Shown one piece after another: positions 1 through 19,324 of a DNA stretch of 20,000 nt. A program made the position numbers and the translations under genes. The stretch is from an uncultured virus (IMG/VR IMGVR_UViG_3300009418_000017) (taxonomy: Duplodnaviria; Heunggongvirae; Uroviricota; Caudoviricetes): IMG/VR virus record IMGVR_UViG_3300009418_000017; one strand, given 5' to 3'. The notes below the pieces were generated by a model. It had not been told where the DNA came from. It did no database searches and saw nothing but the letters and a program-made list of their open reading frames with translations. Every line of letters begins with the position of its first letter. The stretch's first letter is position 1.

Positions 1-616
1 AACGAATTTGCTTAGCCGATTCGGGCATTTTTTTGTTTTCTGCCAAAGCGTAGAAAAACAAAAATCCAGACTGGAACATAATGCCTTCTAGCGCCTGGTT
101 TGCGACTGTGGCCAAAGCAAAGTTCTCGGTCGAGAAACCTTCCGGCATCAACACGTTCATCACGCGAACGTACTTGTTCTTTTCGTGAAGAAGGTCGTCA
201 GTCATGAACATATTGTAAGTTTCGATAGGGTCAAAGCCCATTGTCTCGATCATTAAGCTGTACGCCATGACGTGCATGGACTCATCAAAAATCTGACGAC
301 TCAACGCCATGCGGTACCAGGGCGAAGTCACATGAGAGTTAACCACGTTCAAGTTGTTCAGCTGAAGACCGTCCAGATTTGACAAGAACGCCAGGGCTTT
401 TTGGTAACCGCGTTGCTCAGCCTCAGTTAGAGAGGACCACTGTTGAACGTCACGGCTCATGTCCACAGAAGACTCATTCCAATGGTCTTCACGCATCTTG
501 TCGTAAATCGCCATTGCAGCCGGGTGCTTGGCCGGTTTGATCTGCATTAACCCATTGTCAGGGCCATTAATTACACGATAATCGTCTAAGTTGATGATTT
601 CTTTATCAGATTTCAC
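1..616 (-). CDS. nrdB: Ribonucleotide reductase class Ia beta subunit, 5' part (runs off the left edge; absent from the ORF track)
   Basis: Hand translation from GTG at 616 (GGAG upstream): MKSDKEIINLDDYRVINGPDNGLMQIKPAKHP...FLSNLDGLQ...RQIFDESMHVMAYS...LEGIMFQSGF...AKQIR. Di-iron ligands D, ExxH and E are present, with the radical Tyr at H+4. Lies downstream of nrdA. Confidence 0.93.
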   Translation of the reverse strand, partial: MKSDKEIINLDDYRVINGPDNGLMQIKPAKHPAAMAIYDKMREDHWNESSVDMSRDVQQWSSLTEAEQRGYQKALAFLSNLDGLQLNNLNVVNSHVTSPWYRMALSRQIFDESMHVMAYSLMIETMGFDPIETYNMFMTDDLLHEKNKYVRVMNVLMPEGFSTENFALATVANQALEGIMFQSGFLFFYALAENKKMPESAKQIR

Positions 617-646
617 GTCTATTCTCCGCTACTAATTACAAAATGA

Positions 647-665
647 GAGGGACAATAAGTCCCTC
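647..665 (-). terminator. Hairpin between trx and nrdB (weak terminator or RNA-stabilising stem)
   Basis: Minus strand GAGGGAC-TTATT-GTCCCTC, a 7-bp perfect stem followed by TCATTTTGT, an imperfect U-tract. Confidence 0.45.
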
Positions 666-673
666 AACAACAA

Positions 674-1033
674 TCACTGACACGCTTCGCAAGCAATCTC
701 TTCGTCAGCGTCATAGTCGGTCGCTTCAGCAAGCTCAAAGACTACTCGCTCGATGCGACTCTCATCGTCACCAGTAACCCGGTTTTCTTCCATGCCATAG
801 GCAAAGGTCATTACCGTTGGTGCCGAGCGGATATTGCGCAGATGCAAAAAGCCGTTATCCACGTCTTTAATGTCGATTTTGATAAAGTCGATACTCTGAT
901 GAGTTTCTTCTAACTTTTTCAACGTGCGCTCTGCACTTTGGCAGGGTGCACAGTTTGTAGCGCAAATCATGAGGACCGTAGGACGGCCCTCTGTTAAACG
1001 CTGTACCATTTTTTTGTGATCTAACTGTTGCAT
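674..1033 (-). CDS. Thioredoxin-like protein with an appended NrdA-type C-terminal CxxC tail
   Basis: NCAPC active site, FIKIDI strand and cis-Pro motif IRSAPTVMTF, then acidic tail ATDYDADEEIACEACQ. RBS GGAG lies in the last nrdA codons. Confidence 0.85.
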   Translation of the reverse strand: MQQLDHKKMVQRLTEGRPTVLMICATNCAPCQSAERTLKKLEETHQSIDFIKIDIKDVDNGFLHLRNIRSAPTVMTFAYGMEENRVTGDDESRIERVVFELAEATDYDADEEIACEACQ

Positions 1034-1035
1034 GA

Positions 1036-3228
1036 TTAAGCTCCTACTTTTTTAGCTGCTGAAGAGGTTTTTTGCTTCTTCAGGTAATAAGTTGATTTCA
1101 AACCTAAGCGCCAAGCCAGGTCGTAAATTGCAGCGACTTCTCGCCCTTTTGTGTCCGCCTTGCAATAGATATTCAGACTTTGAGACTGATCTACCCATTT
1201 CTGGCGAACCGCAGCCGGACGAATCTGCCACTCCGGAGATATTTCATAAGCCGTCTTCGTTATTTCAGGCCGGTTGTATTGCTGACACGGCTCTACAACA
1301 CGGTATAAACCGCCTATGTTTTCTTTCTTGAATACACGGTGCTCACTTGCTTCAGTACAAGGCGTGGTACCGGCTATGTTGGCGATGGTTGCCGTTGGTG
1401 CGACCGCCATTAGGTTGCAGTTGCGCATACCTTGTTTAGCCAGTTCGCGAACACGGTCCCAAGCCTCAGCTGAGTACACGTTTGTTTCACGGTTGCGAGC
1501 GGTATCAATTGGCAAAATGCCCTGAGACCACAAGCTACCTTCAAACGACTCGTACCGGCCTCGAGTTCGAGCCAACACGCTTGAGCTAACGATTGAGTGA
1601 TATGAAATAACCTCAAACACTTCGTCTGCCCATTTCAGGTGCTCTTCTGACTCATAATCGATGCCACATTGAACAAGTGCTTCTGCGTAGCCCATGACAC
1701 CAAGACCGATTGGGCGATGACGCATATTCGAGCGGCGAGACTCATCGCTTGGGTAGTAATTGAGGTCAATTACGTTATCCAACATTTCGATAGCGTCAGA
1801 AACCGCCTGGCCAAGCAGGTCAAAGTCAATTTTTCCGTCAACAACCATACGGCTCAGGTTGATAGAGCCTAAGTTACACACGAACGTCTCATTAGTGCTG
1901 TTGTTCAGCGAGATTTCAGTGCACAAGTTCGAGTTGTGAATCATTCCGTCGTGCGACTGAGGATTACGGCGATTATGCTCGTCCTTAAACGTCAGCCACG
2001 GCGCACCTGTTGTCATGACGCTCAGAACGATTTTCTGCCAAAGCTCAGCTGCATTAATCTGGTGACGCGCTTTACCGGCCTTCTCAGCTTCAATGTAAAG
2101 GCGCTCAAACTCTGCACCGTAGCTCTCAACAAGCTCGGGGCACTCGTCAGGGTCAAAGAACGACCAGATTGCTTCCGGATCTTCTTTACGCTTCATGAAT
2201 AAATCGTTCATGAAGAAAACAGGGAAAATGTCATGAGTTCGGCGGCGCTCATCGCCTGTCTTCTTCTTCAGATCGATAAAGGCTAGAGCGTCTGCGTGCC
2301 ACGGCTCAAGATAAGCCGCAAAAGCTCCCTTTCTCTTACCTCCCTGGTTAACAGCTACAGAGGTGTCGTTATAAACTTTCAGGAACGGCACAATCCCTGA
2401 GCTTCTTCCATTCGTTGCGCGAATGTGTCCACCCATCGACCGTACACCTGTCCAGCACGTTCCAATCCCCCCGGCATACTTCGACAGAGCGGCGCACTCG
2501 GTCATCTTTGGGTAGATACCGCCCTCATCAATCAAGCTGTCACCAACAAAGTTGCCGTAACATGAGCTCATTTGGCTGAAGTTGGTGCCTGAGTTAAACA
2601 AGGTCGGTGTCGAGCTCACAAACTCCAGGCTGCTCAGCCGGTCGTAGTAACGAATTGCTGCTTCAGTGCGCTCTTCTTCACTGTCAAAGTTCAGGCTTAA
2701 GCCCATTGCGACACGCATCCAGAAGTGCTGAGGCAGCTCAAACAAACGACCCACTTTTTCATCACGCAAAGGTTCTTTACGCATCAAATATCTTTCTGTC
2801 AGTGTTGACATACCGACAAAGTCAAATAAAGAATCACGCTCCTGAACGATAGCGTCATTAAGGTCGTCCATGTTGAAGCGCAGCATACGCTTGTCAAAAC
2901 GGTTCTCTTCGATACCAGTAATGATTGTCTCTTCAAGGCCTGGGTACCGTAAAGAGCCGCCGGTCACTTCTTTGAAGTTGTTCATCATCATCAGACGCGC
3001 TGCCACAAACGTGTAGTTACGCTCTTCTGATACTTTCTGTGCTGCCGAGATAATCAAGGCATTTTGAATGTCAGACGTTGGGATGCCGTCAAAGAATTTA
3101 AGCGTTGTGCTCATTACAACGTCATCCGGTGAAACGTTTTCCAGGTCACGGCACGCGAATTTTGCAGCGGCGGTGATCTTGTCGATGTTCAACTCTTCAA
3201 GAGAGCCGTTCTTTTTAGTGACTTGCAT
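1036..3228 (-). CDS. nrdA: Ribonucleotide reductase class Ia alpha subunit with N-terminal ATP cone; no C-terminal cysteine pair
   Basis: MQVTKKNG ATP cone; TPTLFNSG; SSCY, NSNLCTEI and VCNLGSINL (three active-site Cys equivalents); RPIGLG; APTAT; KSTYY. Confidence 0.97.
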   Translation of the reverse strand: MQVTKKNGSLEELNIDKITAAAKFACRDLENVSPDDVVMSTTLKFFDGIPTSDIQNALIISAAQKVSEERNYTFVAARLMMMNNFKEVTGGSLRYPGLEETIITGIEENRFDKRMLRFNMDDLNDAIVQERDSLFDFVGMSTLTERYLMRKEPLRDEKVGRLFELPQHFWMRVAMGLSLNFDSEEERTEAAIRYYDRLSSLEFVSSTPTLFNSGTNFSQMSSCYGNFVGDSLIDEGGIYPKMTECAALSKYAGGIGTCWTGVRSMGGHIRATNGRSSGIVPFLKVYNDTSVAVNQGGKRKGAFAAYLEPWHADALAFIDLKKKTGDERRRTHDIFPVFFMNDLFMKRKEDPEAIWSFFDPDECPELVESYGAEFERLYIEAEKAGKARHQINAAELWQKIVLSVMTTGAPWLTFKDEHNRRNPQSHDGMIHNSNLCTEISLNNSTNETFVCNLGSINLSRMVVDGKIDFDLLGQAVSDAIEMLDNVIDLNYYPSDESRRSNMRHRPIGLGVMGYAEALVQCGIDYESEEHLKWADEVFEVISYHSIVSSSVLARTRGRYESFEGSLWSQGILPIDTARNRETNVYSAEAWDRVRELAKQGMRNCNLMAVAPTATIANIAGTTPCTEASEHRVFKKENIGGLYRVVEPCQQYNRPEITKTAYEISPEWQIRPAAVRQKWVDQSQSLNIYCKADTKGREVAAIYDLAWRLGLKSTYYLKKQKTSSAAKKVGA

Positions 3229-3242
3229 ACTACCTCTAGTGT
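3227..3242. promoter_or_regulatory. NrdR box, proximal (overlaps nrdA RBS and start codon)
   Basis: ATACTACCTCTAGTGT versus consensus acaCwAtATaTwGtgt, one core mismatch; 32 bp from the second box. Confidence 0.6.
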
Positions 3243-3258
3243 TATTTCTTATATCGAG

Positions 3259-3274
3259 TTACTAAATGTTGGGG
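3259..3274. promoter_or_regulatory. NrdR box, distal
   Basis: Minus strand CCCCAACATTTAGTAA matches all core positions of acaCwAtATaTwGtgt. Confidence 0.65.
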
Positions 3275-3280
3275 TTTCGT

Positions 3281-3309
3281 AGTATCTCAGCGTTGAAATA
3301 CACAATCAA
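3281..3309 (-). promoter_or_regulatory. Sigma70-type promoter for nrdA-trx-nrdB
   Basis: TTGATT (3309-3304), 17 bp, GATACT (3286-3281) with an extended TGn motif. Confidence 0.55.
3282..3301. promoter_or_regulatory. Palindromic operator-like site RTATYT-N8-ARATAY
   Basis: GTATCT-cagcgttg-AAATAC, overlapping the nrdA -10 and spacer. Confidence 0.6.
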
Positions 3310-3323
3310 CCCCAAAAAACGAA

Positions 3324-3716
3324 TTACAATCTGCTAATTTTTAACAGGTGCGAATAAAACGCAACAAACGGATAAGCAATGGCCGCGTTTATCAACGCAT
3401 AAGCTGGCAGATAAACCGGGTCGAGCGTTTCTATAAAGACCAACCCTAATGGCCAGGCAATGACTGCCACCGCCATATTCACGAAGATCCAGCGAACAAG
3501 GTTCCACGATCTGCGAGCCATATAAACATTGCGGTAATTTTCCGATGCTTTTGCAAGCGCATAGTCTGTCGCTTTTCTGGTGCCAAGAAACAGGTCGCGC
3601 ATAAAAACAGACAGGGCAACGTAAAACGGAACAAACCAGTACGGGTTCATTTCGTGCTCAGTCTGACAATATACCGGCAGTAGCATCATCAACACGATTA
3701 TAGCGAAAACCTGCAT
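3324..3716 (-). CDS. Hypothetical membrane protein (about four hydrophobic segments)
   Basis: 130-aa ORF in operon orientation with a GGAG..TAAtcATG junction to the upstream gene; hydrophobic stretches at both ends. Confidence 0.75.
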   Translation of the reverse strand: MQVFAIIVLMMLLPVYCQTEHEMNPYWFVPFYVALSVFMRDLFLGTRKATDYALAKASENYRNVYMARRSWNLVRWIFVNMAVAVIAWPLGLVFIETLDPVYLPAYALINAAIAYPFVAFYSHLLKISRL

Positions 3717-3718
3717 GA

Positions 3719-4312
3719 TTACGCTCCTATCGCCATTTTCAGCGCATTTCTGAAATAGTTAAACTCTTCGGTTTCCAGGCCGGCTTGAATCGCTGCAATA
3801 GCGTCTGCGGCGTGCTCATTGAAGCCTTCTGTGAAAACCATTTCACCGTTTTTCTTGTGCTTCTTCCACGGTGCATTAGGATGCACTTCGCGCACTGCAT
3901 CAATCATGGTTTGCTTGGTTATAGCGCCTTTAAGACCCATAGCCTTTTTGTTTTCAGCTTCACTCAGTTGAAATACCGGCAGACCTGTCTCGTTTGATAC
4001 AGCGGCCAATACAGTAATGCACATGGCATAGCTCAACTGGGAGCTAGCGTTTTGCGAGCCGTGTGGCATTTCGACGAACAATGCTTTCGGCTTGTGCTCG
4101 TCAATAGAGGCCATAACCTGTTTGTGCAGATACTTGGCTCGGTCAAAGTTCTGAGAGCTTTTGCGCACCTGCTTTTTCTTGGACTTATCCAGTTTATTTT
4201 TAATGACGTCGATATGAGTCACTTCAAATTCCAGATCTTCAATGTCGAGGTTGGCTACCGCCAAACCCCAGTTAGTCATGCTAGGGTCATAACCCATCAC
4301 TACTTGCTGCAT
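3719..4312 (-). CDS. RuvC-like Holliday junction resolvase (RNase H fold); start reassigned to ATG 4312
   Basis: VMGYDPSMTNWG, LFVEMP and NEHAADAIAA match the RuvC acidic motifs. GGAG-tataaa-ATG at 4312 follows the upstream stop at 4314; the 4465 start would overlap that gene by about 150 nt. Confidence 0.8.
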   Translation of the reverse strand: MQQVVMGYDPSMTNWGLAVANLDIEDLEFEVTHIDVIKNKLDKSKKKQVRKSSQNFDRAKYLHKQVMASIDEHKPKALFVEMPHGSQNASSQLSYAMCITVLAAVSNETGLPVFQLSEAENKKAMGLKGAITKQTMIDAVREVHPNAPWKKHKKNGEMVFTEGFNEHAADAIAAIQAGLETEEFNYFRNALKMAIGA

Positions 4313-4313
4313 T

Positions 4314-4739
4314 TTATACTCCGTATTTTCCCCAACTTGGAATGCGCTCTCGCATTTCTTCGTTTTCACCACGCTTGTAAAGCTCAACTGTGCTTTCAAG
4401 CTCCTTTTCGACAATCTGCTCAAACTGAACAAATTGCTCGACCGTTGCTGAATAACCGAGCTCATTAATAATGCACTCTGCTATTTCAACGTTTTCCGGT
4501 TTCTCCAGGTTCGCTCTTATGCGTCGAGTTCGTATCTTGCCTTCGACATAAAGAGTGCCGTTCTCATCGACAAGCCTCGGACTTCTAATGACGGCGCCTG
4601 GGCCAACTGTTGACTCCTGGTAACCATGCTTTTCTCTGAAGTCCACCAACAGCTGAGCCGCATTAACGTCTAGCTTGCCTAGCGACTCAACTTTTACCCC
4701 CCAGTCATCAATAAGGGCTCTCAGAACTATCGGCTTCAA
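4314..4739 (-). CDS. Hypothetical protein (141 aa); start reassigned to TTG 4739
   Basis: Strong SD AAGGAGG 6 nt before TTG at 4739 (MKPIVLRALIDDWG...); fills the gap between neighbouring genes. Confidence 0.7.
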   Translation of the reverse strand: MKPIVLRALIDDWGVKVESLGKLDVNAAQLLVDFREKHGYQESTVGPGAVIRSPRLVDENGTLYVEGKIRTRRIRANLEKPENVEIAECIINELGYSATVEQFVQFEQIVEKELESTVELYKRGENEEMRERIPSWGKYGV

Positions 4740-5232
4740 CCTTAACCTCCTTTGCCTTAACAACCTCTACATCATTCAAATCAACAATTCCGGCTATACC
4801 CTCCTCGTCAATCATTTCTTGAGCTATGGCGGCATAACCTCCCCTCAAAAACGCATCATCCCGAGCACAGGCATTGTTAATTCGAACCTTTACGGTCACC
4901 TCAAGATGCTGTGTTTCATTGCAGTGCGGTCTAAACTGCTCGCAGTTTTTCTCTGCACGATCTTGCTCATTAAGCCAGTAGAAGACCTTGTCTTTGCTCT
5001 GCTCATCCGGGTCTTCTACGACTTCACTGCCTGGCACCAACTGGATCTCACTAACTTCGTCATCAGGAATCCCGAATCTCGACTTAAGTGGCCAAAAAGA
5101 TGTTCCGTTTGGAAGGCACCACTTAACGACCTCACCCTTCTTGGTTTTTATGTTGTAGAGGTCTTTGTAACGAAAGCCGGTGTACTCGACCCAACGTCCA
5201 AAGTCATCGTATCTATGGTTTACTTCGTTCAT
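4708..5232 (-). CDS. Hypothetical protein (174 aa, acidic)
   Basis: TAATG stop/start overlap with sbcC, GGAG upstream, operon orientation. Confidence 0.75.
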   Translation of the reverse strand: MNEVNHRYDDFGRWVEYTGFRYKDLYNIKTKKGEVVKWCLPNGTSFWPLKSRFGIPDDEVSEIQLVPGSEVVEDPDEQSKDKVFYWLNEQDRAEKNCEQFRPHCNETQHLEVTVKVRINNACARDDAFLRGGYAAIAQEMIDEEGIAGIVDLNDVEVVKAKEVKVEADSSESPY

Positions 5233-7157
5233 TACTCCACCAATGTTGCTTGACCGTCACGTTTGACGACCGTTACTTGTTGACGAATCCAGTCTCTAAG
5301 CTCGTTATGACTGATTACCAGTACTGTTCCGTGTGTACGTGCACGTTCATCAAGTACATTCATCAATCGCTCAAGGCCGGCTGTATCGAGTGCATGGTCT
5401 ATCTCATCACCGATATACAGATCGATGTTTTTAACAGCTCGGGTAGACACCAGATCTTGCAATGCCAAGTTTGTTGACAAGCGAACCTTGCGCTTCTCGC
5501 CGCCTGACAGCGCCTTGAATGAGTTGCCGCCTGTCTGAGATTCCACATCAATCGTGAACTTCTCAGTCAGCTCGCCGTTGGCCTTTTTGCTTAGTGTTTG
5601 CCATGTCGCCGTAATGTTGCCGTCTGACAGCGCTGACAAGTACTCCGCCGTTCTCTGGTTAAGATAAGGCGTTACCGTGTCGAGAATATGAGCACGAACA
5701 CCCGAATTCCCGTAAACTTCTGCAACTTCCTTCATCACCTCAACAGTCTCAGCTTGCTCTTCAAGATCACTTATGACCTTTTCATAGCTCTTCTTCTGGT
5801 CAGCCAAACGCTTCTCAAGACGCTCAATACTCTGCTTGTGAGGGTTAGACTCATCACTTTTGGCGTGCTCGAGCTGTATCTTTTTAGAGTCAATTGACTC
5901 CTTTTCGCGCTTAAGGTTATCAACCGCTCGTTGATATTCGTTTCGCTGATTGAAAAGCGCCACGATCTCAGAATCATCGAACTCCGGCGCCTCTCTTCTG
6001 GCCACATTCAATTCTGTTTGAGCATCGTCAAGCTGCTTCTCAAGGTCGGCAAGCTTTGGCTTCTCCTGCTTTATCTCGGCCATTAACTCGTCAAGGCGCT
6101 TCTTGCGGACTTCAATGACATCAGCCATGTCATGCTCCGAGTAAGGCTTGCCACACTCGCGACAATCAGTGCCAATTAGCGACTCACTGTTGTCTATTTC
6201 ACCCTTGAGCTTTCTCGCTTCATTGGCCAACTGACTCAGCTCAGCCCGAACCTTGCTGTGCTCAGCCTGGACTGCAGAAAGGTTTGCCTGTTTCTGAGCC
6301 TCATAAGCTTTGTGCGCTGCTTTGGCTTCTGTTCGAGACTCTTCAATTTCCTTTATCTTGTCTTCAATTGAATCGTCTTTCTTACCCTTCAGCTCGGCTG
6401 CTTTTTCTCTAACAGAAGCGGCCTTTTCTTCAATTTCTCGCTCAAGGTCTGCCACAACCTGCTTTTGGCGCTCTTCGTGCTCTTTAGCCTGAGACTTGGC
6501 TTGCTCCAAATCTTCTTTTGTTGTCTGCAAGCTGCGAGCTTCAAACTCCTTGCTTTGAGAAAGTGTTTCGTAATCCCGCTTTGCATCCTTCAGCTTGTCT
6601 TTGGCCAACTTATAGGCGTTTTGCAGTCGAGTGATTCCGGCTGCTTCTTCAACAATGGTCTTTAGCTCTTTATCGGTCATGGCGGGTAAGTCCACCTGAG
6701 CCTCTTGAGCGCTATACACGGACGCATTGAAGATTTCTTGACTGCAACCTAAGACTTCTACAATTTTCGCCTGAGTGAGCTTGTCTGTGCCGCCTGTGAG
6801 CGATTCTTCTTTGCCGTCAGCAATACGAACAAGCTGAACCGAATTTTTGAACTCTTTGTGCTTGCGATACCGGGTTACCACGTACTTGTCGTCACCGTCG
6901 ATGATCTCTACCGACACCGAGCAATTTTTCTTGGCTTTTCGGTTAACAATGTCGGTAGGTGAAATGCCCCGAGCTGTCACGCCAAACAGACACCAACTTA
7001 TTGCATCAGCAATAGTTGATTTACCGGCTCCGTTTGAGTTCTGACTTTCGTCATGCTCGTTCTCGCCCTGTATCAACAGAAGCCCTCGTTGCTGAAGGTT
7101 AATCGATGCTTCACCGATTGCCATGAAGTTAATGATATTTACGTCGCCAAAGTGCAT
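5232..7157 (-). CDS. sbcC: SbcC/Rad50/gp46-like SMC-family ATPase
   Basis: Walker A NGAGKST with a short insert, long coiled coil with central Zn-hook CRECG, signature LSGGEK, Walker B YIGDE, H-loop VISH. Confidence 0.93.
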   Translation of the reverse strand: MHFGDVNIINFMAIGEASINLQQRGLLLIQGENEHDESQNSNGAGKSTIADAISWCLFGVTARGISPTDIVNRKAKKNCSVSVEIIDGDDKYVVTRYRKHKEFKNSVQLVRIADGKEESLTGGTDKLTQAKIVEVLGCSQEIFNASVYSAQEAQVDLPAMTDKELKTIVEEAAGITRLQNAYKLAKDKLKDAKRDYETLSQSKEFEARSLQTTKEDLEQAKSQAKEHEERQKQVVADLEREIEEKAASVREKAAELKGKKDDSIEDKIKEIEESRTEAKAAHKAYEAQKQANLSAVQAEHSKVRAELSQLANEARKLKGEIDNSESLIGTDCRECGKPYSEHDMADVIEVRKKRLDELMAEIKQEKPKLADLEKQLDDAQTELNVARREAPEFDDSEIVALFNQRNEYQRAVDNLKREKESIDSKKIQLEHAKSDESNPHKQSIERLEKRLADQKKSYEKVISDLEEQAETVEVMKEVAEVYGNSGVRAHILDTVTPYLNQRTAEYLSALSDGNITATWQTLSKKANGELTEKFTIDVESQTGGNSFKALSGGEKRKVRLSTNLALQDLVSTRAVKNIDLYIGDEIDHALDTAGLERLMNVLDERARTHGTVLVISHNELRDWIRQQVTVVKRDGQATLVE

Positions 7158-7159
7158 GA

Positions 7160-8233
7160 TTAAGCCTCCACTTCCTGCAGCACTGCCAGTGCTTCTTTCA
7201 CAACACGGTTCTTGCGAATAGAATCGCGTGATTCAACATAGCTCTCAATTGAGCCCTCTAGCGTCTCTGACTTTTCAGTATCAACACTGTCCTTGCGCTC
7301 AGTGACGTTGGTCTTCGGTGTAGCAACAATTGACACACCAAGTGCGCCCCTCTCTTTCATGTCGTTTTTCAGAGAGCTTGATTCTTCAATGCTTAGCTCA
7401 GAAGCACGAACACGAACGAAATTACCGGGTACGTGGTAAACAGCGTCTTCGTAATCTTCCTCTTCGCTTATCAAGTCCATGTTCACGTCTACGAATTTAG
7501 GCGCCTGAGTTTCAAAGTGCTTGACGCTGTCACCTTCAACCAGTATGAATCCGGCTCTGGAGCTAATATCGCCAAAGTTCTGATGTGTTAACGCACCAAC
7601 AGACACAACCGACTTGTCATCGTCTATGTCAAACACTTTGTGATTGTGGTAATGACCAAAGTAGAAGCGCTTGGCTTTATACTTCGCAAGCTCTTCGTAT
7701 GAGAAGCCGTGATCGGGTATGCCGCTAATCACGCCGTTCAATTGCGCGTGCAGGTGAACATGAGCGTTTCCGTTACTATCATCCAACTGATTGCTAAGCT
7801 CTTCACGCAAGTCATCCAGGTTTGCAAACCAGGGCATTAATAGCGTTTCTTCGTCAATCCAGGTTGGTTCTGTCACAACATTGACACCGACACCCTGAAG
7901 CGCTGAACTGGCGTTAGACACCCACTCTGAGTCACGACCTTCTAAGTCATGGTTGCCGGCTATCATGTGAATGCCGTCTTCAAACTTACCTTCGTACTCT
8001 TTGTACAGGTTTAGTACCGGGTTCAAAACGCTCGGAATGATTTTTCCGCGAACATGAAAGCAATCGCCGTCATGGATAACTCGGGTAGCACCCTCTTTCA
8101 GAGCGTGCTCAAACGCTTCTCGGGTTGCCTCTATGATATGCAAAAGTCGGCTGTTAACGCCGTCCACAGTTGTGCTGAATTGGTCGAAATTGTGATAGTG
8201 AGTGTCACTTATCAAGCAATCGAATCTGTTCAT
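7160..8233 (-). CDS. sbcD: SbcD/Mre11/gp47-like metallophosphoesterase nuclease
   Basis: Motifs SDTH, GDCFH, GNHD, HLH and GHYH; adjacent to the SbcC-like ATPase. Confidence 0.92.
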   Translation of the reverse strand: MNRFDCLISDTHYHNFDQFSTTVDGVNSRLLHIIEATREAFEHALKEGATRVIHDGDCFHVRGKIIPSVLNPVLNLYKEYEGKFEDGIHMIAGNHDLEGRDSEWVSNASSALQGVGVNVVTEPTWIDEETLLMPWFANLDDLREELSNQLDDSNGNAHVHLHAQLNGVISGIPDHGFSYEELAKYKAKRFYFGHYHNHKVFDIDDDKSVVSVGALTHQNFGDISSRAGFILVEGDSVKHFETQAPKFVDVNMDLISEEEDYEDAVYHVPGNFVRVRASELSIEESSSLKNDMKERGALGVSIVATPKTNVTERKDSVDTEKSETLEGSIESYVESRDSIRKNRVVKEALAVLQEVEA

Positions 8234-8260
8234 CTTTTAATCTCGCTTGTCTTGCTGAAT

Positions 8261-8280
8261 GTATTTCAATACTTACATAA
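8261..8280. promoter_or_regulatory. Palindromic operator-like site (degenerate)
   Basis: GTATTT-caatactt-ACATAA in the 48-bp gap upstream of sbcD. Confidence 0.45.
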
Positions 8281-8281
8281 A

Positions 8282-8734
8282 TTAAGCTCGGGTTAAATAG
8301 ATAGCCGTTAATTTGTTTGACTTTAAAACCCAATTCTTTCCATAACTTTTCACCAGTGCATCAAAAACAACCGGCACAAAGTGCTCATCTTGGTTGGCCA
8401 GGGCCATGTGATTTCTCTCGCCGTGTTCTAAAAGAACATTGTCGAAATCACCGGCTATCGTCATCACAACGGCGCAATCTAACCGCTCACCCTTGCATTC
8501 CAGTGTAATGATGTCACCCGGCTTTAATCGCTTATGCCATGCACTGTGAAGCCGCATTGTGTTGAATATCTTTTGATCGGTTCCGTCCAACCATTTTATC
8601 GGCAATATCGGTCTCATTTCCTGACACATTTGAACGTCACCTCGAAACTCGCAGTTTAAAGAGCATTCACTGCAAAGCGTTTCCGTCGATGACGTTTGAA
8701 AACCTGCTTCCATGCGTTTTAGAACTCTCATCAC
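8282..8734 (-). CDS. Hypothetical protein: N-terminal Cys cluster plus possible ASCH/PUA-like domain (start GTG 8734 or ATG 8731)
   Basis: CSECSLNC-x7-C; FNTMRL...KRLKPGDIITL resembles the ASCH TxR..GD pattern; GGGAG upstream. Confidence 0.7.
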   Translation of the reverse strand: MMRVLKRMEAGFQTSSTETLCSECSLNCEFRGDVQMCQEMRPILPIKWLDGTDQKIFNTMRLHSAWHKRLKPGDIITLECKGERLDCAVVMTIAGDFDNVLLEHGERNHMALANQDEHFVPVVFDALVKSYGKNWVLKSNKLTAIYLTRA

Positions 8735-8749
8735 TTCTCCCGTAGATAT

Positions 8750-8779
8750 AAAAAATGCGACACCGTTAGTGTCGCATTT
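8750..8779 (-). terminator. Rho-independent terminator downstream of recA
   Basis: Minus strand AAATGCGACAC-TAACG-GTGTCGCATTT, an 11-bp perfect stem running into a T-tract. Confidence 0.8.
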
Positions 8780-8803
8780 AATTAAAGGTAATCAATACCG
8801 ATT

Positions 8804-8823
8804 GTATCTATTTAACTAGATAT
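8804..8823. promoter_or_regulatory. Palindromic operator-like site
   Basis: GTATCT-atttaact-AGATAT, overlapping the recA stop codon. Confidence 0.6.
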
Positions 8824-9823
8824 TTTCCTTAAGATGCTTGATGACATCGCCGGTTAGGTCGTTGTCGTCAATATGCTTAATCAACGTTGCGCGAGGGTAA
8901 GTTTTCCCGTCAATAAACTTGATTCGATTACCGGCTCTCTCCAGAAAACCGTTCTCCTTCATGTAATCGACAAGCGCCCCGGTTGTGTCGATACGACCGA
9001 TTGACTTCTGACCGGCTCCGCTGCGCTCATACGCAATGTTCCACTTAACTTTTTCACCGACCGACTGCGTCACTTTGTTCTTAATGATTTTCGCCGTGAT
9101 TTCATGCTCATGCACGCGACCCTCTTCCGACTTCACCTTCTTGCCGAGAGAGATACGCACTGAAGCGTAAAACTTAAGCGCTTTACCGCCAGGTGTCGTC
9201 TCAGGATTGCCGAACATAACGCCTGGCTTTTCACGGATCTGGTTGAGGTAAATCATCACCACATCCATGTCATCGACGAACAGGTTTACCGCTTTCAACG
9301 TCGAACTGGTTACTCGAGCCAGTGCCGTTGTGTCGTTCATGTTGTATTCGCTGATGCCCTTTTCTGCAACAGATTTTGGTACTGCAGCTGCCACCGAATC
9401 CTGAACAATAACGATTGGCTTGTCAGCAAACTCTTTTGAGTTTCGAATTGCTTCAGCAACTTCTAACGCCTTTGTATTGCCTTCTTCCCAAGTAACCGGC
9501 TTGATATACATAAAGTGTGGTCGTTTTGTATTCAGACCTAAGTCTTCAGCGAAGTCTTTCTTGAAAGACCGCTCGTAATCCACAAAGATTCCGACACCAC
9601 CGGCTTTCTGAGCGGCAATCATGGCCATTGTCGCCATTGCTGTCTTACCTGATGACTCAGGGCCGTAGATTTCATAAATGCGGCCGGTGGCAAATCCACC
9701 ATCCGGGTTGCCGCTCAACACAATGTCCAACGGCAAAAGCGATGAACTCATAAAGTGATTTTCTTCTTCAAGCCACTCTTCGTCACCTAAAAGACCGGCT
9801 AACTCTTTATCTAAACTTGCCAT
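8816..9823 (-). CDS. recA: RecA/UvsX-family recombinase (phage-type, divergent termini)
   Basis: GRIYEIYGPESSGKT Walker A, VQDSVAA Walker B, NQIREKPGVMFGNPETTPGGKALKFYASVR. Confidence 0.95.
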   Translation of the reverse strand: MASLDKELAGLLGDEEWLEEENHFMSSSLLPLDIVLSGNPDGGFATGRIYEIYGPESSGKTAMATMAMIAAQKAGGVGIFVDYERSFKKDFAEDLGLNTKRPHFMYIKPVTWEEGNTKALEVAEAIRNSKEFADKPIVIVQDSVAAAVPKSVAEKGISEYNMNDTTALARVTSSTLKAVNLFVDDMDVVMIYLNQIREKPGVMFGNPETTPGGKALKFYASVRISLGKKVKSEEGRVHEHEITAKIIKNKVTQSVGEKVKWNIAYERSGAGQKSIGRIDTTGALVDYMKENGFLERAGNRIKFIDGKTYPRATLIKHIDDNDLTGDVIKHLKENI

Positions 9824-9835
9824 GCTGAATGCTCC

Positions 9836-10762
9836 TTATGCGAATAGACGTTCAACGGTGTCTATTTGATTCGCCAAACTGATGAAATTGTTGTCCTCGA
9901 AAAACACCAAAGTTTCTTCTTTACTGAACTTAGGCTTTTCCATCTTGAGGCCGCTTGGTTTTGGCGACTTGCTCATATCCATAAGCGCTATGTTCCGCTT
10001 AAGGATCTCCAGACCGCCATTTTCGTTGCTACAAAAAGCGTTAATCTTCTTGCGAGCCCGAGTAAGCTCTTTGGGCAAGTCTTCTTTTTCAAACTCACCA
10101 TTTGCCCGATAAGCTTTAATCAATTCAGCTATGCTTCCGAAATGATTAATAACTCGCTGAGCTGTTAGCTCTCCCAGGCCACCAACGCCGGGTATGCAGT
10201 CTGAGTTGTCACCTTGCAAATACTTAGATTCGAGAAATTGCTTGGTTGTTTTAAACCCTGTCTTTTTCTCGAAACCATGAGTATCAACTACCTCATCGTT
10301 ATGTAGGTTGTACCAGTGAACGAACGGGTTAACCAATTGCAGCCAGTCCTTGTCACCAGTCACAAGCAAAACACGCTTGCCGTTGTCCGATAACTTTTTG
10401 CTTATCCAATAAGCCAGGTCATCAGCTTCTAAACCTTCATAGCTCAATTGCTGAATGCCCATCTTTTCGAGCGCTTCTTTGATCAGGGGTCGCTGCTTGC
10501 GGTATTCTTCCCGCTCAGCCGCCACTTTCGGATTGTCGTCACGCTTTGATTTGTACTCAGGGTATATGTCAAAGCGGAACTGACAGTGCTCGTCCCACAG
10601 ACAGATAATTCGAGCGTCAGGGTTTAAGCGCTTAAACTTGATCATCTGCTTGATACTTTGAAACACGGCTTGAGTTTGGTTACCGTCTCCGTCGTTAAGC
10701 TTGCGAGTGCTATTCGACTGATAACCCACCGCATTCATATCAACCAAAATTACGTTATACAT
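9836..10762 (-). CDS. 5'-3' exonuclease / flap endonuclease (T4 RNase H / Pol I N-terminal family)
   Basis: LVDMN, RFDIYPEYKSKR, EADDL, TGDKDWLQLV, and H3TH motif GDNSDCIPGVGGLG. Confidence 0.93.
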   Translation of the reverse strand: MYNVILVDMNAVGYQSNSTRKLNDGDGNQTQAVFQSIKQMIKFKRLNPDARIICLWDEHCQFRFDIYPEYKSKRDDNPKVAAEREEYRKQRPLIKEALEKMGIQQLSYEGLEADDLAYWISKKLSDNGKRVLLVTGDKDWLQLVNPFVHWYNLHNDEVVDTHGFEKKTGFKTTKQFLESKYLQGDNSDCIPGVGGLGELTAQRVINHFGSIAELIKAYRANGEFEKEDLPKELTRARKKINAFCSNENGGLEILKRNIALMDMSKSPKPSGLKMEKPKFSKEETLVFFEDNNFISLANQIDTVERLFA

Positions 10763-10779
10763 GGTGTGAATCTCCAGTG

Positions 10780-10807
10780 AAGAGAAAGGGGGCTAACGCC
10801 CCCTTTT
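10780..10807 (-). terminator. Rho-independent terminator downstream of the SSB gene
   Basis: Minus strand AAAGGGGGC-GTTA-GCCCCCTTT then CTCTT; may act in both directions. Confidence 0.75.
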
Positions 10808-10825
10808 AAAGTTACCGAGTGAACC

Positions 10826-11908
10826 TTACAGGTCGCCCAAGATGTCGTCTAAGTCATCGTCGCTTGAAGACTCAGCTACCGGCGCGTCTCCGCCTACAAC
10901 TTGCTTTTCTTCAGAAGCCTTTTTCTCAGCTTCAGCTTTGGCTTTGGCTTCTTCTTCAGCTTTCGCCTTAGCTTCCGCTTCTTTGCGCTGTTCAGCTTCA
11001 CGCTTAGCCTTAGCTTCTTCTTCGGCCTTAGCCTTTTCTTCGGCTTCCTGGTCGTCAGATTCAGACTCAACAACCTTCTCTTCTGAAGCTTCTGCTTCAG
11101 GCTCGTCAGCCGGCTCGTACTCAGCATCTTCAATGCTTTCGTCCAACATATTGTCGAGTTCACGGCGCTCACTGGCTTTGTTCTCAAGAGCTCGACCACC
11201 ATCAGCAACTTCGATGCCGACAATAGAGCCAACAGTAGCGATTGCCTTATTGACTCGCTCCTGCTCCCAGTTCTGAGCTTTAATCCACTTGTCGATGTCC
11301 TTGCGAGCTTCTAACTGCTCTTTAGTCACGTCTTTAACGTTATTCTTAGGCGATGTCGGCATGACTGTATATTTACGGTCAAAACCCGAGCCTGTTGCGT
11401 TAACAGTGATATCAAGGCCGTCTTCCGTTGCAATGATTTGCTCACCGTACTCTTCAAACAGACTGATAATGTCGTTTTCAAACAGTGAACGTGGAATGTC
11501 GATCACTTCAACGCTATCATCTGAGCGCTTGTCACCACGCACAACAACGTTTAGCAAAATACGATTACCGGCGTTCGCTTTCTTAAGCGCTTTAACGCTG
11601 TCATCACTGTCATTGATTTCACCCATAGACTCGCGAACATAGCCAAACGCATCGCCAATAGCGTTACAGGTCGGACACTCTTCGTCGTAAGTTGCGCGAG
11701 GGCATACATGAACACCTTTCAAGTCGCCTTTTGCATCTTTTACAAAGTGCATACCAAAATCGTGAAAAAAGGTGTCGTCGTCTTCGCGCCAACCCGGTAG
11801 GATGCGCAACTGCGTTTTGCCTTCTTTCAGTTTATAAGCACTATCGTTACCTAGTTTGCGTTCTTCAGCTTGTTCTTTGCGTTTCTTGATGATGTCGTTT
11901 AGTTTCAT
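10826..11908 (-). CDS. T4 gp32-like single-stranded DNA-binding protein
   Basis: KLKEGKTQLRILP, H..CP..CPTC putative Zn site, and acidic end DDDLDDILGDL resembling the gp32 tail; sits in a recombination cluster. Confidence 0.8.
   Translation of the reverse strand: MKLNDIIKKRKEQAEERKLGNDSAYKLKEGKTQLRILPGWREDDDTFFHDFGMHFVKDAKGDLKGVHVCPRATYDEECPTCNAIGDAFGYVRESMGEINDSDDSVKALKKANAGNRILLNVVVRGDKRSDDSVEVIDIPRSLFENDIISLFEEYGEQIIATEDGLDITVNATGSGFDRKYTVMPTSPKNNVKDVTKEQLEARKDIDKWIKAQNWEQERVNKAIATVGSIVGIEVADGGRALENKASERRELDNMLDESIEDAEYEPADEPEAEASEEKVVESESDDQEAEEKAKAEEEAKAKREAEQRKEAEAKAKAEEEAKAKAEAEKKASEEKQVVGGDAPVAESSSDDDLDDILGDL
10947..11035 (-). repeat. Intragenic duplication, 66-nt period, encoding KAKAEEEAKAK
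   Basis: gcttcttcttcagctttcgcctt (10947-10969) and gcttcttcttcggccttagcctt (11013-11035), 20/23 identical. Confidence 0.7.
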
Positions 11909-11917
11909 GATGTTTCC

Positions 11918-12445
11918 TTAGCCTTCTACATTCATGCCAGTTGCTTTTTGAATTCGTGATGCCGCAGCCCCACGGTCCTTTTTTGGAGCTGAGTGATAGC
12001 CTTCCAATGAAAGCTGTTCAGACTCCCTTTTGGCCAATTGCGAAATCATTCGCGAACGTTGGTCAAACGCTTCGTTCATGCTCTTGCAAATGCCCAAAAC
12101 TTCTTTCGCATCGATGACTAGGTCTTCCACCTTTCTCATCAATGGGTGTGTCTCAACTTCGGCGGCGATTGCCGGTTCAGTCTTCTTGTCTCCGCTATCG
12201 AGTGCTTGCTTGCGCACTTCTTTAGCAAGAGACGACCGAACTATTTCAGCCGCACGTTTGAGACGCTCATGTTGCTTCTGAGCTTGGCTGTGAGCGACAC
12301 CGGCTAGAAAGGCCAGTGACGGCTGACCTCTCATTTCTTCATCCAGTCTTTTGTCGCTGATAGACAGCTTTGAGCGCATTTCTTTTCCCGTTAATGGGTT
12401 TCGAACGGCTAGCTCAGAAACAAACTCTTTCAAATCTTTTTGCAT
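11918..12445 (-). CDS. UvsY-like recombination mediator (helical/coiled-coil), tentative
   Basis: All-helical 175-aa protein; KKTEPAIAAEVETHP...EAFDQRSRMI resembles the UvsY family; adjacent to gp32-like SSB and near recA. Confidence 0.6.
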   Translation of the reverse strand: MQKDLKEFVSELAVRNPLTGKEMRSKLSISDKRLDEEMRGQPSLAFLAGVAHSQAQKQHERLKRAAEIVRSSLAKEVRKQALDSGDKKTEPAIAAEVETHPLMRKVEDLVIDAKEVLGICKSMNEAFDQRSRMISQLAKRESEQLSLEGYHSAPKKDRGAAASRIQKATGMNVEG

Positions 12446-12474
12446 ATTTTGTATCTCTCTGCTGATTGACGAGA

Positions 12475-12503
12475 ACTATAAAACACTTTCTTAAGAATAT
12501 CTA
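12475..12503 (-). promoter_or_regulatory. Sigma70-type promoter for the uvsY-like/ssb genes
   Basis: TAGATA (12503-12498), 17 bp, TATAGT (12480-12475). Confidence 0.5.
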
Positions 12504-12520
12504 TCTATCCACTGAGATAT
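12501..12520. promoter_or_regulatory. Palindromic operator-like site
   Basis: CTATCT-atccactg-AGATAT, overlapping the predicted -35. Confidence 0.6.
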
Positions 12521-12537
12521 TTTCCTAAGTAAAGAAA

Positions 12538-15500
12538 TTACTTTCCAACCATTTCTGCTGCCCGGATAAACGCATTTTCTATTTCTTCTGTCAGCTCTGG
12601 CTTCATGTAAATCATGCCTGGACTGACTGTGAATAAATACGTTCTGTCACCGTCTACATCATAAACGTCTTGCCCTGACAGCTCTTCAATTCCACCTTTA
12701 ACATCCGGGTGAAATGCACGAACAGTCATTGAGCCGGATAGAATGCAAATAGCAGGGTCCATAATGGCCACTTCTTCTTTTATGATGTCCTTGTACGCTT
12801 TGAGAAGATTCGGATCTATCTCTTCACCAAACTTAGGTTTTTCAGTTTTGAACAAGGTTGTGTAATACACCTCTGCCATTCCAAAACCTGCATTCTTAAT
12901 GGCCGCTTCAACCGTCCCTCGCGTTTTCTTGTCGAGCAACTCACCTTTCTGCAGCTCATAATAGTTTGGCGCATCAACGATCATCATGACGTATGGCCGC
13001 TTACCTGTTTTCGGTACCACTTCAATCGGCACATCGTATTCTTTTTCTTTATCCTGGTACATTTTGAGCAATGTCGGTTCAGCCAGGCCAAAGTTCATCC
13101 TGCGATTAGCCGACACGTCAGCCATAGCAAATGCCCCCATAACTTCTTTCTGAGCCCGAACACGGTCAGCGTGCAACGGATGCTTTTGATCCGGCTCGAT
13201 GTCAGCAAACGCACCAATCGAGTCCAGGTTCTCAATTGCTCGCTTATTAAGTTTGCGACCGTCTACCCTACCCCTTAAGTCTTCTATCGATTCGAAAGGG
13301 CCATTCTTGCGAGCTTCCAGTATTGCTTCAACACTTTTGCCGCTGACGTACTTAACACGGTCGAGAGGTGTGTATAGAACCTCACACTCACGAGCTGTGT
13401 CATAGACTATCTCAAACTTACCCGATGACTTGTTTATGTCGGGCGGCAAAATAATCACCCCATCGTTTGCAGCGTCTCTCGCTACACTGCCGACTTTGTC
13501 ATCTGACAGAATCGACATTGATGCTGCGTAAAATACAGCCGGATAGTTCGCCTTTATATAGCCGCACTGATACGAAATTAGTGAGTACGCCACTGCGTGC
13601 GATTTGTTGAATGAGTAGGCAGCAAAGCCTTCAATATCATCCCAAAGCTGCTGAGCGTCTCGCTCAAGCATCCCTGAATCGACACAACCGTTAATGAACC
13701 GCTCACTCATCGTTGCCATTTTCTCAGCGTCTTTCTTGCCAACTGCTTTACGCAAAATGTCAGCTTGAGCCATAGTGAAGCCAGCCAAGTCTTGCGATAG
13801 CCTCATGATCTGCTCCTGGTAAACCATGACACCAAACGTCTCTTTCAACGCCGGTTCAGCTTTACCGTGAACGTATGCTTCATTCAGCTGACCTGAACGA
13901 ATCTTGCAGTACTGCTCTGACAGACCGGCGTCGAGTGGACCCGGACGGTTTAATGCGTTGACCGCAACGATGTCTTCAAAGGTCATTTCGCCGCCTTCAG
14001 CGATGTCTTTTAGCAGTTTTCGAGCATTGCCCCCTTCAAACTGAAAAACCCCCTTAGTGCGACCCTCAGCAAACAGCTGAAGCGTTTTCTTGTCATCAAG
14101 CGGAATCGCATTAAGGTTTAACTTAATATCCCGCTCTTCTAAGAAATCCAGTGCAATGCGCAAAATGTCCAACGTCGACAAGCCTAGCAAGTCGAGCTTT
14201 ATCAAGCCCTGGTCTTCTACATTCGACTTATCCCAGTTAACCGTTGCACCTTTTCGAGTTTCGAGAACGGCACGCTCCCTGATCGGAACTCCTGCGACAA
14301 TCAAACCGGCTGCGTGCTGAGACAAGGTTCTTAACTTACCCTGAAGCCCGTCAATTTGTTCGATTATCTCAGGGTACTTCTCTGCGAAACCCTGCATCTG
14401 ATCGTCTTGCTCAAGCGCCTCTTCAAGCGTCATTTCATTCAGCTTTTTGGAGACGTTTATCTCCGAGTTACTCAGCCCATGTGTACGACCTAAATCACGA
14501 ATCGTTGAAGAGCCACCCAGTTTTGAGTAGTTGCTGATACCGGCTACATATTCTTTACCGAACTTGTCCTCTAAATGCTCCACCACGTTCTGACGACGAG
14601 ACGACATAAAGTCCAGGTCGATATCCGGATAGTCGAGACGGTCAGGGTTCAAGAAGCGCTCGAAAATCAGGCCAAAACGAATCGGGTCAACATCAGTAAT
14701 TCCCATTAAATAAGCGACCAGTGAACCCGCCGCTGAACCACGAGCCGGGCCTACCGCAATCTTGTTCTCTTTCGACCAGTTGACTACGTATGAAACGAGA
14801 AGAAAGTAAGGAACGAAGCCCATTTCTTTGATAATGCCAAGCTCATACTTCAAGCGCTCTTTGTAAACCGGCATATCTTCCGCTGACGGCTTATAATCAA
14901 AAACCGGCTTACTGAAACGCAACTGCCAGCCTTCTTTGCACTTGTTAACTAGCTCACCGAACTCATCTTCAGCAAGTTTAGGTAGAGATATCTCCTGACG
15001 CTCCCACTTGTAATCACAACGCTCATGAAAAGACACGGCGTGCGGCAACAGTCTTTTCAGAAGATCTACGTTGCAAGAAACTTTGAGCTCCTGTGAGCTC
15101 ATCAAATAAGCATCCCGGTATTGCGGTATCGGTCTTAGCTCAGATTTAGCCGGAGCTCCTTTGAAAGAAGAGCCGTTAACTATGTAGCTTAAATGGTCTC
15201 GAGTATCGTCCTGACCCTTTTTATACATAGCCGTTCTGGTGATAATCAGTTGAAGACGCTCAGAATCATCGTTCTCAATGAGTTCCAATGCTGCATCACA
15301 CACCGACTCGAAATAGCCTGTTGGCAGCAATGGCGCCTCAAGATAAAACTCTGGCACTGTATCGACCAAGTTTCTGACAATGTCGGTTGCGTTTGGCAAC
15401 AACAAAGGAGAATTCATGTCATTCGTGGTCACGATGACATTTCCACGACTTGCAACCTTAACGATGTCGTAAAGAGACGTTCTAGGGTGAAAGTAGAAAT

Positions 15501-15831: not shown

Positions 15832-16310
15832 AGTAACGTGTATTCCTTGCCATTCTTTTCAATCATGCCGTAGAAGTCGAGCGCCTTTATTGCCGCCGTA
15901 ACTTCTGACTGAGCCGTTGTCTGAGCCATGCCCAGGCCTAATGCGTAATCCAATAACTCTGAGCGTGTGAAGCCGCCTGTCTTCAGCATACTTACTGCTT
16001 GCCAAAACACTTTTCTATCTTTGTGTCTCTGACCTGCGCCTAGTATGTCAGCACTTACATACAAATCTTTATCAAAAAGAGAGAGCACAAGCTTCTTAGG
16101 GTGTTTAGCTAATTGATCTAGCTTTTCAGCAAACAGCTCTTTCTGCCGGTTGCTCTCTTCTTTTTTCATTATCTTCTTGTCGTCACTGTCACCGCTAAAG
16201 CTTTGAATGACGCCTTTGACCCGTTCCGAGCACTTATCCTTTATCTCGCACGATTTACAGTAGTCGCTTCTCGGGTCATAACAGGCAGCGTAACCAAAGC
16301 ACAGTCTCAT
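15828..16310 (-). CDS. Hypothetical protein: N-terminal Cys cluster, possible C-terminal winged helix; start reassigned to ATG 16310
   Basis: MRLCFGYAACYDPRSDYCKSCEIKDKC; C-terminal FTRSELL..AQTTAQSEV..LDFYGMIEKNG. ATG is 2 nt after the stop of the AAA gene. Confidence 0.75.
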   Translation of the reverse strand: MRLCFGYAACYDPRSDYCKSCEIKDKCSERVKGVIQSFSGDSDDKKIMKKEESNRQKELFAEKLDQLAKHPKKLVLSLFDKDLYVSADILGAGQRHKDRKVFWQAVSMLKTGGFTRSELLDYALGLGMAQTTAQSEVTAAIKALDFYGMIEKNGKEYTLL

Positions 16311-16312
16311 AC

Positions 16313-17419: not shown

Positions 17420-17451
17420 TTTACCGCGCTCGTATTGCTGAATGTGTTCTT

Positions 17452-17480
17452 ATAGTATGACAGTGCTGAGATATATTCAA
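17452..17480 (-). promoter_or_regulatory. Sigma70-type promoter for the AAA-hypothetical-dnaE genes
   Basis: TTGAAT (17480-17475), 17 bp, TACTAT (17457-17452). Confidence 0.6.
17455..17474. promoter_or_regulatory. Palindromic operator-like site
   Basis: GTATGA-cagtgctg-AGATAT, filling the promoter spacer; inner CAG/CTG symmetry. Confidence 0.55.
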
Positions 17481-17492
17481 CTCGCCAAAAGA

Positions 17493-19259: not shown

Positions 19260-19270
19260 TCCTTAAATAG
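19251..19270. promoter_or_regulatory. Palindromic operator-like site
   Basis: ATATCT-cattcctt-AAATAG, covering the RBS/start of the vWA gene. Confidence 0.55.
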
Positions 19271-19275
19271 TGCTT

Positions 19276-19306: not shown

Positions 19307-19324
19307 AGTCATGAATTTGTTTTA

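Follow-up and report, generated by a model that had tools for sequence, protein, structure and literature searches.

We describe a class I ribonucleotide reductase (RNR) whose redox arm probably works in trans, having been moved from the large subunit, NrdA, onto a dedicated thioredoxin (Trx). The system lies in a 20,000-nucleotide stretch of DNA from an uncultured virus of the Caudoviricetes (IMG/VR record IMGVR_UViG_3300009418_000017), the whole of which we call the window. Here nrdA ends without a cysteine pair, and the adjoining gene, trx, encodes a small thioredoxin-fold protein that finishes in a pair of the type found at the end of other NrdAs. Taken together, the two genes and their relatives make up a variation on the redox system of class I RNR that is real, conserved and apparently undescribed.

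The NrdA C-terminus and the adjoining thioredoxin

Pfam recognises an ATP cone, an all-alpha domain and a ten-stranded barrel in the window NrdA, and the two domains that define a class I enzyme are both present (barrel PF02867, E 7.5e-155; all-alpha PF00317, E 2.2e-20). The protein scores 573 bits against TIGR02506, for which the cut-off is 341, and its best solved relative, 5im3 (E 1.8e-184), aligns with it through the SSCY, NLCTEI and VCNLGS motifs. The NrdB partner of a class I NrdA is also at hand, as a PF00268 open reading frame (ORF) at 2-616; the flexible C-terminal Cys pair is absent. The chain reads STYY and then 15 residues, LKKQKTSSAAKKVGA, with no Cys past the dyad. Residues C223, N434, C436, E438, C451, Y714 and Y715 are all kept, and these seven are invariant in 60 aligned homologues, nine of them tail-less. 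Their roles (C223/C451 as the redox pair, C436 as the thiyl-radical Cys, N434/E438, and the YY dyad in the radical path) are those established for E. coli NrdA. Since the active-site C223/C451 is retained in the tail-less enzyme, a reductant would still be needed.

The position of this NrdA among its relatives was examined in the best 120 homologues of 8000 scored. Most of these (109/120) are tailed, with 24-63 residues after YY (median 40) that end in CxxC plus one residue; the endings are CEACQ in 49, CESCQ in 49 and other in 11. The remaining 11 of the best 120 (clusters P0004-P0012, P0014 and P0098) finish in stubs of 15-20 residues, with no Cys in any of them. In a FastTree tree of 119 rows, built with the tail columns removed, the 10 tail-less rows make up one side of a branch with a support of 99, such that one change of state suffices. 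Their sister group consists of 28 tailed rows, 25 of which, read by eye, carry a two-Cys tail in which an aromatic residue stands two places ahead of the first Cys. The deep branches of the tail-less group share 53-58% identity with one another. By alignment and tree, then, the loss of the tail is real and confined to one NrdA clade.

The neighbouring protein is a thioredoxin by fold, scoring 32.5 bits against PF00085 (cut-off 23.5) and matching in PHROG only the broad family 22, "thioredoxin domain". AlphaFold2 models it with a mean predicted local distance difference test (pLDDT) score of 90 and the order beta-alpha-beta-alpha-beta-alpha-beta-beta-alpha, and the top Foldseek matches of the model are classical thioredoxins (TM 0.73-0.80, root-mean-square deviation 1.6-2.5). 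The C28-A-P-C31 site stands at the start of helix H29-44, as expected of a thioredoxin active site; CAPC here replaces the usual CGPC. P72, which we take to be the equivalent of the thioredoxin cis-proline before strand 3, is invariant in the family. Beyond the fold, the C-terminus runs ATDYDADEEIACEACQ and ends in CEACQ, identical to the commonest NrdA ending (49/109 tailed). The last nine residues have a pLDDT of about 52 and no secondary structure, and are thus predicted to be flexible. The Trx family profile aligns solved thioredoxins at positions 4-111 of 117 only, so that no solved thioredoxin has such an end.

Close relatives of this Trx are few, with only three clusters at 75-100% identity, all with identical endings. 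A profile search of 1.84 billion representative proteins returned 443 matches at E <= 0.001, and among the best 150, which were inspected, nine end in CxxC within three residues of the C-terminus, namely eight Trx relatives and one unrelated 289-aa protein. The eight further tailed clusters (P0124-P0128, P0135, P0138 and P0167; 26-50% identity) share one build: a thioredoxin of about 95 residues, an acidic linker, C-E-[A/S]-C and one last residue. Across an 11-sequence family alignment spanning 26-80% identity, the invariant positions are G16, C28, C31, R69, P72, G80, C115, E116 and C118, and the tail Cys pair stands at the very C-terminus in 11/11 members. On this pattern of conservation, the Trx tail is under selection. 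A first-pass annotation of this DNA had described an NrdA ending 15 residues past YY without Cys, next to a thioredoxin fold with an NCAPC site that is extended to a Cys-pair end; coordinates and residues are as it claimed, the homologue alignment bears out the tail loss, and its assignment of the extension to the RNR type agrees with the identity of CEACQ to the terminal motif of this NrdA subfamily and with its invariance down to 26% identity.

ORF calls and Pfam place nrdA, trx and nrdB in series on the minus strand of the window (Table 1). Only 2 nt separate the nrdA stop from the trx ATG (1031-1033), which is preceded by an AGGAG 7 nt upstream; the trx frame is -1 relative to that of nrdA, making two separate frames. 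The short gap suggests that translation of the two genes may be coupled. The nrdB gene follows with a GTG start codon 57 nt past the trx stop. To exclude an error at the junction, assembled contigs of four runs were aligned on 300-1700, a check whose reach stops short of rare variants. One contig of 95,322 bp, X3, comes from a different study and covers the whole interval with 20 substitutions and no gaps, and a short contig from the fourth run (X4) crosses the nrdA-trx junction gap-free. The 19 listed substitutions of X3 leave the NrdA protein unaltered and replace a single residue of Trx (Q2K); position 1034 is variable (G>A on the plus strand). Strain variation is therefore nearly synonymous and devoid of insertions or deletions, and both the nrdA and the trx frames are under purifying selection. 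The junction is no assembly artefact, and the earlier claim that nrdA and trx are not one ORF holds in every assembly aligned.

The 16 runs containing window DNA are labelled marine metagenomes, with no RNA run listed among them, and the window matches a virus record of 101,852 bp (G001) that CheckV rates 100% complete. This record contains one thioredoxin and one RNR large subunit; glutaredoxin (PF00462) and a Pyr_redox_2 flavoprotein were both sought in it, and neither was found. Its thioredoxin lies at 93362-93718, where a 20-kb window starting about 680 nt before would overrun the end of the record, so the window must derive from another assembly of this phage, either longer or permuted differently.

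Further observations concern nrdA itself. At seven positions the tail-less clade (at least 8/9 sequences) differs from the tailed enzymes (A290S, P341N, C418H, T440S, W525Y, S639G and T712S); position 440 adjoins NLCTEI, position 712 adjoins the YY dyad, and position 418 is Cys in 37/51 tailed enzymes. These clade-fixed positions could mark a docking surface or a lost contact with the tail. One cluster of the clade, P0005, is the window NrdA with an intein: it is 1119 aa long, carries a LAGLIDADG-type domain (PF14528) and is 100% identical to the window NrdA over residues 400-730. Its contig, at 95,322 bp, has the same size as the X3 contig, which also carries trx, so the intein is polymorphic between near-identical phages; inteins also occur in other listed NrdAs, including P0012, P0036 and P0071. 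A spike in depth at 1376-1434 falls on the segment that encodes the highly conserved APTATIANI region of NrdA. Many short, unrelated contigs of runs X1, X3 and X4 match it over only about 55 nt, at less than 90% identity and with loose ends, and the spike is due to the RNR genes of other organisms, not to this phage.

Gene pairing and gene order among relatives

Linkage of a tail-less nrdA to trx at the DNA level is seen in the window with its strain variants, and in L021, a 1,346-bp JGI contig that holds the end of a tail-less nrdA, a 192-aa gene and a trx 76% identical to P0128. Four further pairs of tail-less NrdA and tailed Trx were matched by the size of their longest contigs: P0006 with P0003 (both 90671 bp), P0008 with P0124 (both 57413 bp), P0009 with P0125 (both 22279 bp), and P0098 with P0138 (both 59659 bp). 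Over five pairs, the pairwise identities of NrdA and Trx co-vary (Spearman 0.83, from 10 non-independent comparisons). The predicted co-occurrence of tailed Trx with tail-less NrdA is thus found directly in the window and L021, and by inference in the four additional pairs. The three-gene order nrdA-trx-nrdB, also part of the first-pass annotation, is present in the window and is not strict, as L021 has a fourth gene between nrdA and trx. This inserted gene (469-1047 of L021) belongs to the N4 gp49/Sf6 gp66 family (PF13876, E 2.6e-10); it overlaps the nrdA stop at its start and the trx start at its stop, and is possibly a mobile insertion.

The converse situation is provided by P0158 and P0164, which are nested in the Trx family beside P0128 (support 85-89) and have lost the terminal Cys; P0158 additionally lacks the second active-site Cys. 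The contig of P0164, at 7654 bp, has the same size as that of P0071, a tailed, intein-bearing NrdA of a distant clade; a contig of 18573 bp also encodes a Trx relative lacking the tail Cys. From these sequences, P0158 and P0164 look like decayed partners left behind after replacement of the RNR.

Gene order in the tailed relatives bears on how the arrangement came about. Of the IMG/VR loci, 13 contain the whole 3' end of NrdA; in all 13 this NrdA is tailed and is followed, without an intervening trx, by an ORF of about 330-357 aa; five of these next ORFs were checked, and all five are PF00268. Tailed relatives thus have nrdA and then nrdB directly, and trx in the window occupies the place of the tail-coding end of nrdA. 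A single insertion or re-partition event, in an ancestor shared by the clade, would account for this order, in line with the earlier suggestion that trx was inserted into the 3' end of nrdA. In the event that we envision, trx would have been placed between the body of nrdA and its tail-coding end, in a gene ending in aromatic-x-CEACQ. Judged from the tree and the gene order, the arrangement most likely arose once.

Searches elsewhere returned little. Scans of IMG/VR with Trx, two Trx sub-alignments and the tail-less NrdA P0011 found no relatives, with records of the window's own genome possibly excluded, and the two Trx family sub-alignments had no match in GTDB species genomes. In a metagenome scan, L021 was the one true relative, L022 and L023 being ordinary thioredoxins. 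Against 50,697 phage records, tblastn of the window Trx gave no match at E <= 1e-3; P0124 and P0128 found in the same records only distant ordinary thioredoxins (26-35% identity), none of which reaches the tail, and megablast of window positions 1-4500 against phages gave only three 35-nt matches. All examples of the system known so far are on contigs of uncultured marine phages.

The rest of the window, from 3324 to 19738, lies entirely on the minus strand and forms a phage replication and recombination module (Table 1), in which the DnaE-type polymerase and the CobS/CobT-like pair are less common phage features.

Table 1. Coordinates of the reductase genes, their landmarks and other genes in the window
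Feature	Position	Strand	Remarks
nrdA, class I RNR large subunit, 730 aa	1036..3228	-	PF03477, PF00317, PF02867
Lys-rich 15-residue stub after YY	1039..1083	-	relatives: 24-63 residue tail ending CxxC
nrdA-trx junction	1034..1053	-	A6 run 1048-1053, AGGAG 1041-1045, TAA 1036-1038, spacer 1034-1035
trx, 119-aa thioredoxin-fold protein with RNR-type tail	674..1033	-	PF00085
Trx active site C28-A-P-C31	941..952	-	Cys invariant in 11/11 family members
Acidic linker (residues 104-114) and terminal C115-E-A-C118-Q	677..724	-	putative relocated redox tail
nrdB, small subunit	2..616	-	PF00268, E 5.4e-39; N-terminal 205 aa only, cut by window start
RuvC-like nuclease	3719-4465	-	
Rad50/SbcC-like ATPase	5232-7157	-	
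Mre11/SbcD-like phosphoesterase	7160-8233	-	
RecA	8816-9823	-	
5'-3' exonuclease	9836-10762	-	
gp32-like protein	10826-11908	-	
DnaE-type polymerase III alpha	12538-15831	-	
AAA_5 and CobT-VWA pair	16313-19259	-	

A proposed electron relay and its competitors

In the mechanism that we propose, the C115/C118 pair of Trx, carried on a flexible acidic end, would enter the NrdA active site in trans and reduce the C223-C451 disulfide. Re-reduction of the oxidised tail would then fall to the CAPC site (C28/C31), either of its own Trx molecule or of one next to it, and this site would in turn be recharged by host thioredoxin reductase with reduced nicotinamide adenine dinucleotide phosphate (NADPH). 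The last step is an assumption, given a divergent Trx with a CAPC site.

Structure prediction of the NrdA-Trx complex, run on alignments that we supplied, gave a median score of 0.47 against 0.00 for the best of three controls; the runs agree on at least 75% of contacts, and the partner has a pLDDT of at least 83. The mark used was reached by 116/157 solved complexes and 2/215 mismatched pairs, counts that apply only roughly to a prediction made from supplied alignments. Among complexes with scores of 0.60 or less, just 18 of the 157 solved ones passed, together with both of the passing mismatches. The modelling therefore lends weak support to a predicted association of NrdA with Trx.

A more far-reaching version of the trans arm, which we consider conceivable and rather less than evenly balanced, would make Trx an obligate, stoichiometric third subunit of the RNR, docked at the rim of NrdA with its nine-residue arm shuttling in a self-contained relay, all derived from one insertion. 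Docking would perhaps be helped by the Lys-rich stub of NrdA and the acidic linker of Trx, and the arm would swing back and forth between the disulfide of NrdA and the CAPC site of Trx, such that electrons from host thioredoxin reductase would reach the active site through one small protein. If this were true, the phage enzyme would be freed from having to match the redoxins of its host.

Several observations weigh against an arm in trans. The free Trx arm beyond the last helix measures about nine residues, compared with 24-63 in the covalent tails; with so short an arm, the Trx domain itself would need to sit against the active-site mouth, and such docking is suggested only faintly, by a weak complex score with no reported interface. 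Against the TIGR01068 equivalog Trx scores 35.2 bits, well below the cut-off of 96.8, which marks it as a divergent member of the superfamily. Direct linkage to a tail-less nrdA is restricted to the window, its strain variants and L021, and the L021 contig ends before the trx tail; the four further pairs were inferred solely from equal-sized longest contigs, not from sequence, and a partner could be named for none of the tail-less P0007, P0010, P0011, P0012 and P0014 in a library collapsed at 50% identity; these five come from contigs of 4953, 35776, 107102, 30412 and 6184 bp. Finally, Trx has four invariant Cys, a number compatible with a metal site.

This last point leads to an unlikely alternative, in which NrdA would be reduced directly by the CAPC site of Trx, leaving the terminal Cys pair to other work, be it binding a metal together with C28/C31, a regulatory or resolving role, or recharging by a host redoxin. 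Four invariant Cys would suffice to bind Zn or an Fe-S cluster, only a short part of the tail is flexible, and, according to PMC9669993 and its preprint, the Cys-free C-termini of some class II enzymes may mean direct reduction by small reductants. However, the Trx motif consists of the same five terminal residues as in 49/109 tailed NrdAs, and the hydrophobic or aromatic residue before its first Cys is likewise found in the sister-clade tails. The motif is moreover present on Trx exactly in the clade whose NrdA has lost it, it is gone from a nested Trx relative apparently paired with a tailed NrdA, and AlphaFold2 leaves the tail disordered instead of packing it on the active site. These properties argue against the alternative. 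It would be more surprising still if the Trx tail were an inert leftover, with NrdA served directly by host redoxins or small thiols, or poorly active. Direct reduction is chemically possible, as NrdJa, the catalytic chain of a split class II RNR, is slightly active alone with dithiothreitol (PMC4520616). Yet the tail Cys are invariant although identity over the rest of Trx has fallen to 26-35%; the clade of tail-less NrdAs is old (53-58% between deep branches), with all catalytic residues kept, and strain variation in both genes is almost wholly synonymous. In the same study, NrdJb, the partner of NrdJa, is required in vivo.

The tail could also have stayed covalent, if a -1 ribosomal frameshift on the A6 run were to fuse the NrdA body, the thioredoxin and the tail into one chain, and the junction does offer some of what this would take. 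The A6 run, followed by G, lies 15 nt 5' of the nrdA stop, and the trx frame, which is -1 to nrdA, is open from there, six codons 5' of the trx ATG (open frame 125 aa). By inspection of the sequence, however, the nrdA frame does not divide the run into the canonical X XXY YYZ heptamer; an AGGAG of its own precedes the ATG of trx, the starting Met falls near one and the same alignment column in 11/11 family members, nrdA and trx are set apart in L021 by a 192-aa gene, and none of the best 120 NrdA homologues contains a thioredoxin domain. A search for longer, fused forms of Trx matched none, which is weak evidence. We regard a frameshifted fusion as the least credible of these explanations, with next to no weight, and retain as the probable reading a separate Trx that carries the arm in trans.

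Known reductase systems and the meaning of a probable arm in trans

The window enzyme matches canonical class I NrdA (R1) in its domains, in its catalytic residues and in the redox pair of the active site, and the terminal CEACQ of the nearest tailed NrdAs is the ending of the window Trx. The presumed donor has a thioredoxin fold in both, the canonical pair being recharged by thioredoxin, glutaredoxin or NrdH. The difference is one of placement: the canonical pair is on NrdA, whereas here it is on Trx, with shuttle and reductant in one polypeptide encoded in the operon. Small dedicated redoxin genes beside RNR genes are familiar from NrdH with NrdEF, as here, and the nrdC product of phage T4 is presumably another operon-encoded dedicated redoxin. 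Such redoxins, in contrast, reduce a tail that the large subunit has kept, and they are not known to end in a Cys pair of the RNR type.

Closest in principle is NrdJa/NrdJb, a split RNR of class II from Pseudomonas aeruginosa and other gamma-proteobacteria; its catalytic chain is tail-less, as is the one here. NrdJb ends in redox-active Cys and carries out thiol-disulfide exchange in trans, as described by Crona et al. 2015 (PMC4520616). In both cases a tail-less catalytic chain is accompanied by an adjacent gene product that ends in a Cys pair. NrdJa/NrdJb is, however, a class II (adenosylcobalamin, AdoCbl) enzyme without NrdB, whereas the window RNR is class I with NrdB; NrdJb is a detached piece of NrdJ and not a redoxin (PMC4520616, PMC9669993), whereas the carrier here is a thioredoxin with its own CxxC; and only in the RNR barrel are the two systems homologous. 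By analogy, the window RNR is thus a system that would work like NrdJa/NrdJb and not a member of it.

Coupling of a redoxin to an RNR is also seen in fusions. PMC6187632 lists Grx::NrdB in Facklamia ignava, Francisella and vibrio phages, and Grx::NrdA in two viruses, and describes redoxins coupled to RNR and encoded in operons as common in phages. The coupling is found here too; in the fusions, however, a glutaredoxin is joined to a whole subunit and the tail, going by that paper's general statement, is left on NrdA, whereas here a free thioredoxin holds the tail. The window genes do not form such a fusion, being separate ORFs in different frames. We found no description of a class I NrdA without the pair, or of a thioredoxin carrying it, in the full-text literature covered, which did not extend to subscription journals and supplements such as Table S1 of PMC6187632; the first-pass annotation, which knew of no such architecture, agrees with this outcome. 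The system is no new kind of chemistry.

What it offers is a different access to a familiar step. The entry of the class I RNR arm and its recognition by redoxins are structurally poorly resolved, as the arm is flexible and covalently attached. A natural two-piece system would make the arm titratable, mutable, cross-linkable and trappable as a mixed disulfide without touching the catalytic subunit, and its small folded handle may ease cryo-electron microscopy of the complex. PMC6187632 says of class I RNRs that every one has the Cys pair in its NrdA, a universal statement that the tail-less clade contradicts. The split-RNR principle would be extended from class II to class I, and the locus would cleanly illustrate how inserting a gene can shift a functional peptide from one protein to another. 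As regards annotation, it would follow that tail-less NrdAs of marine phages are not necessarily truncated or inactive, and that small phage thioredoxins can be RNR components.

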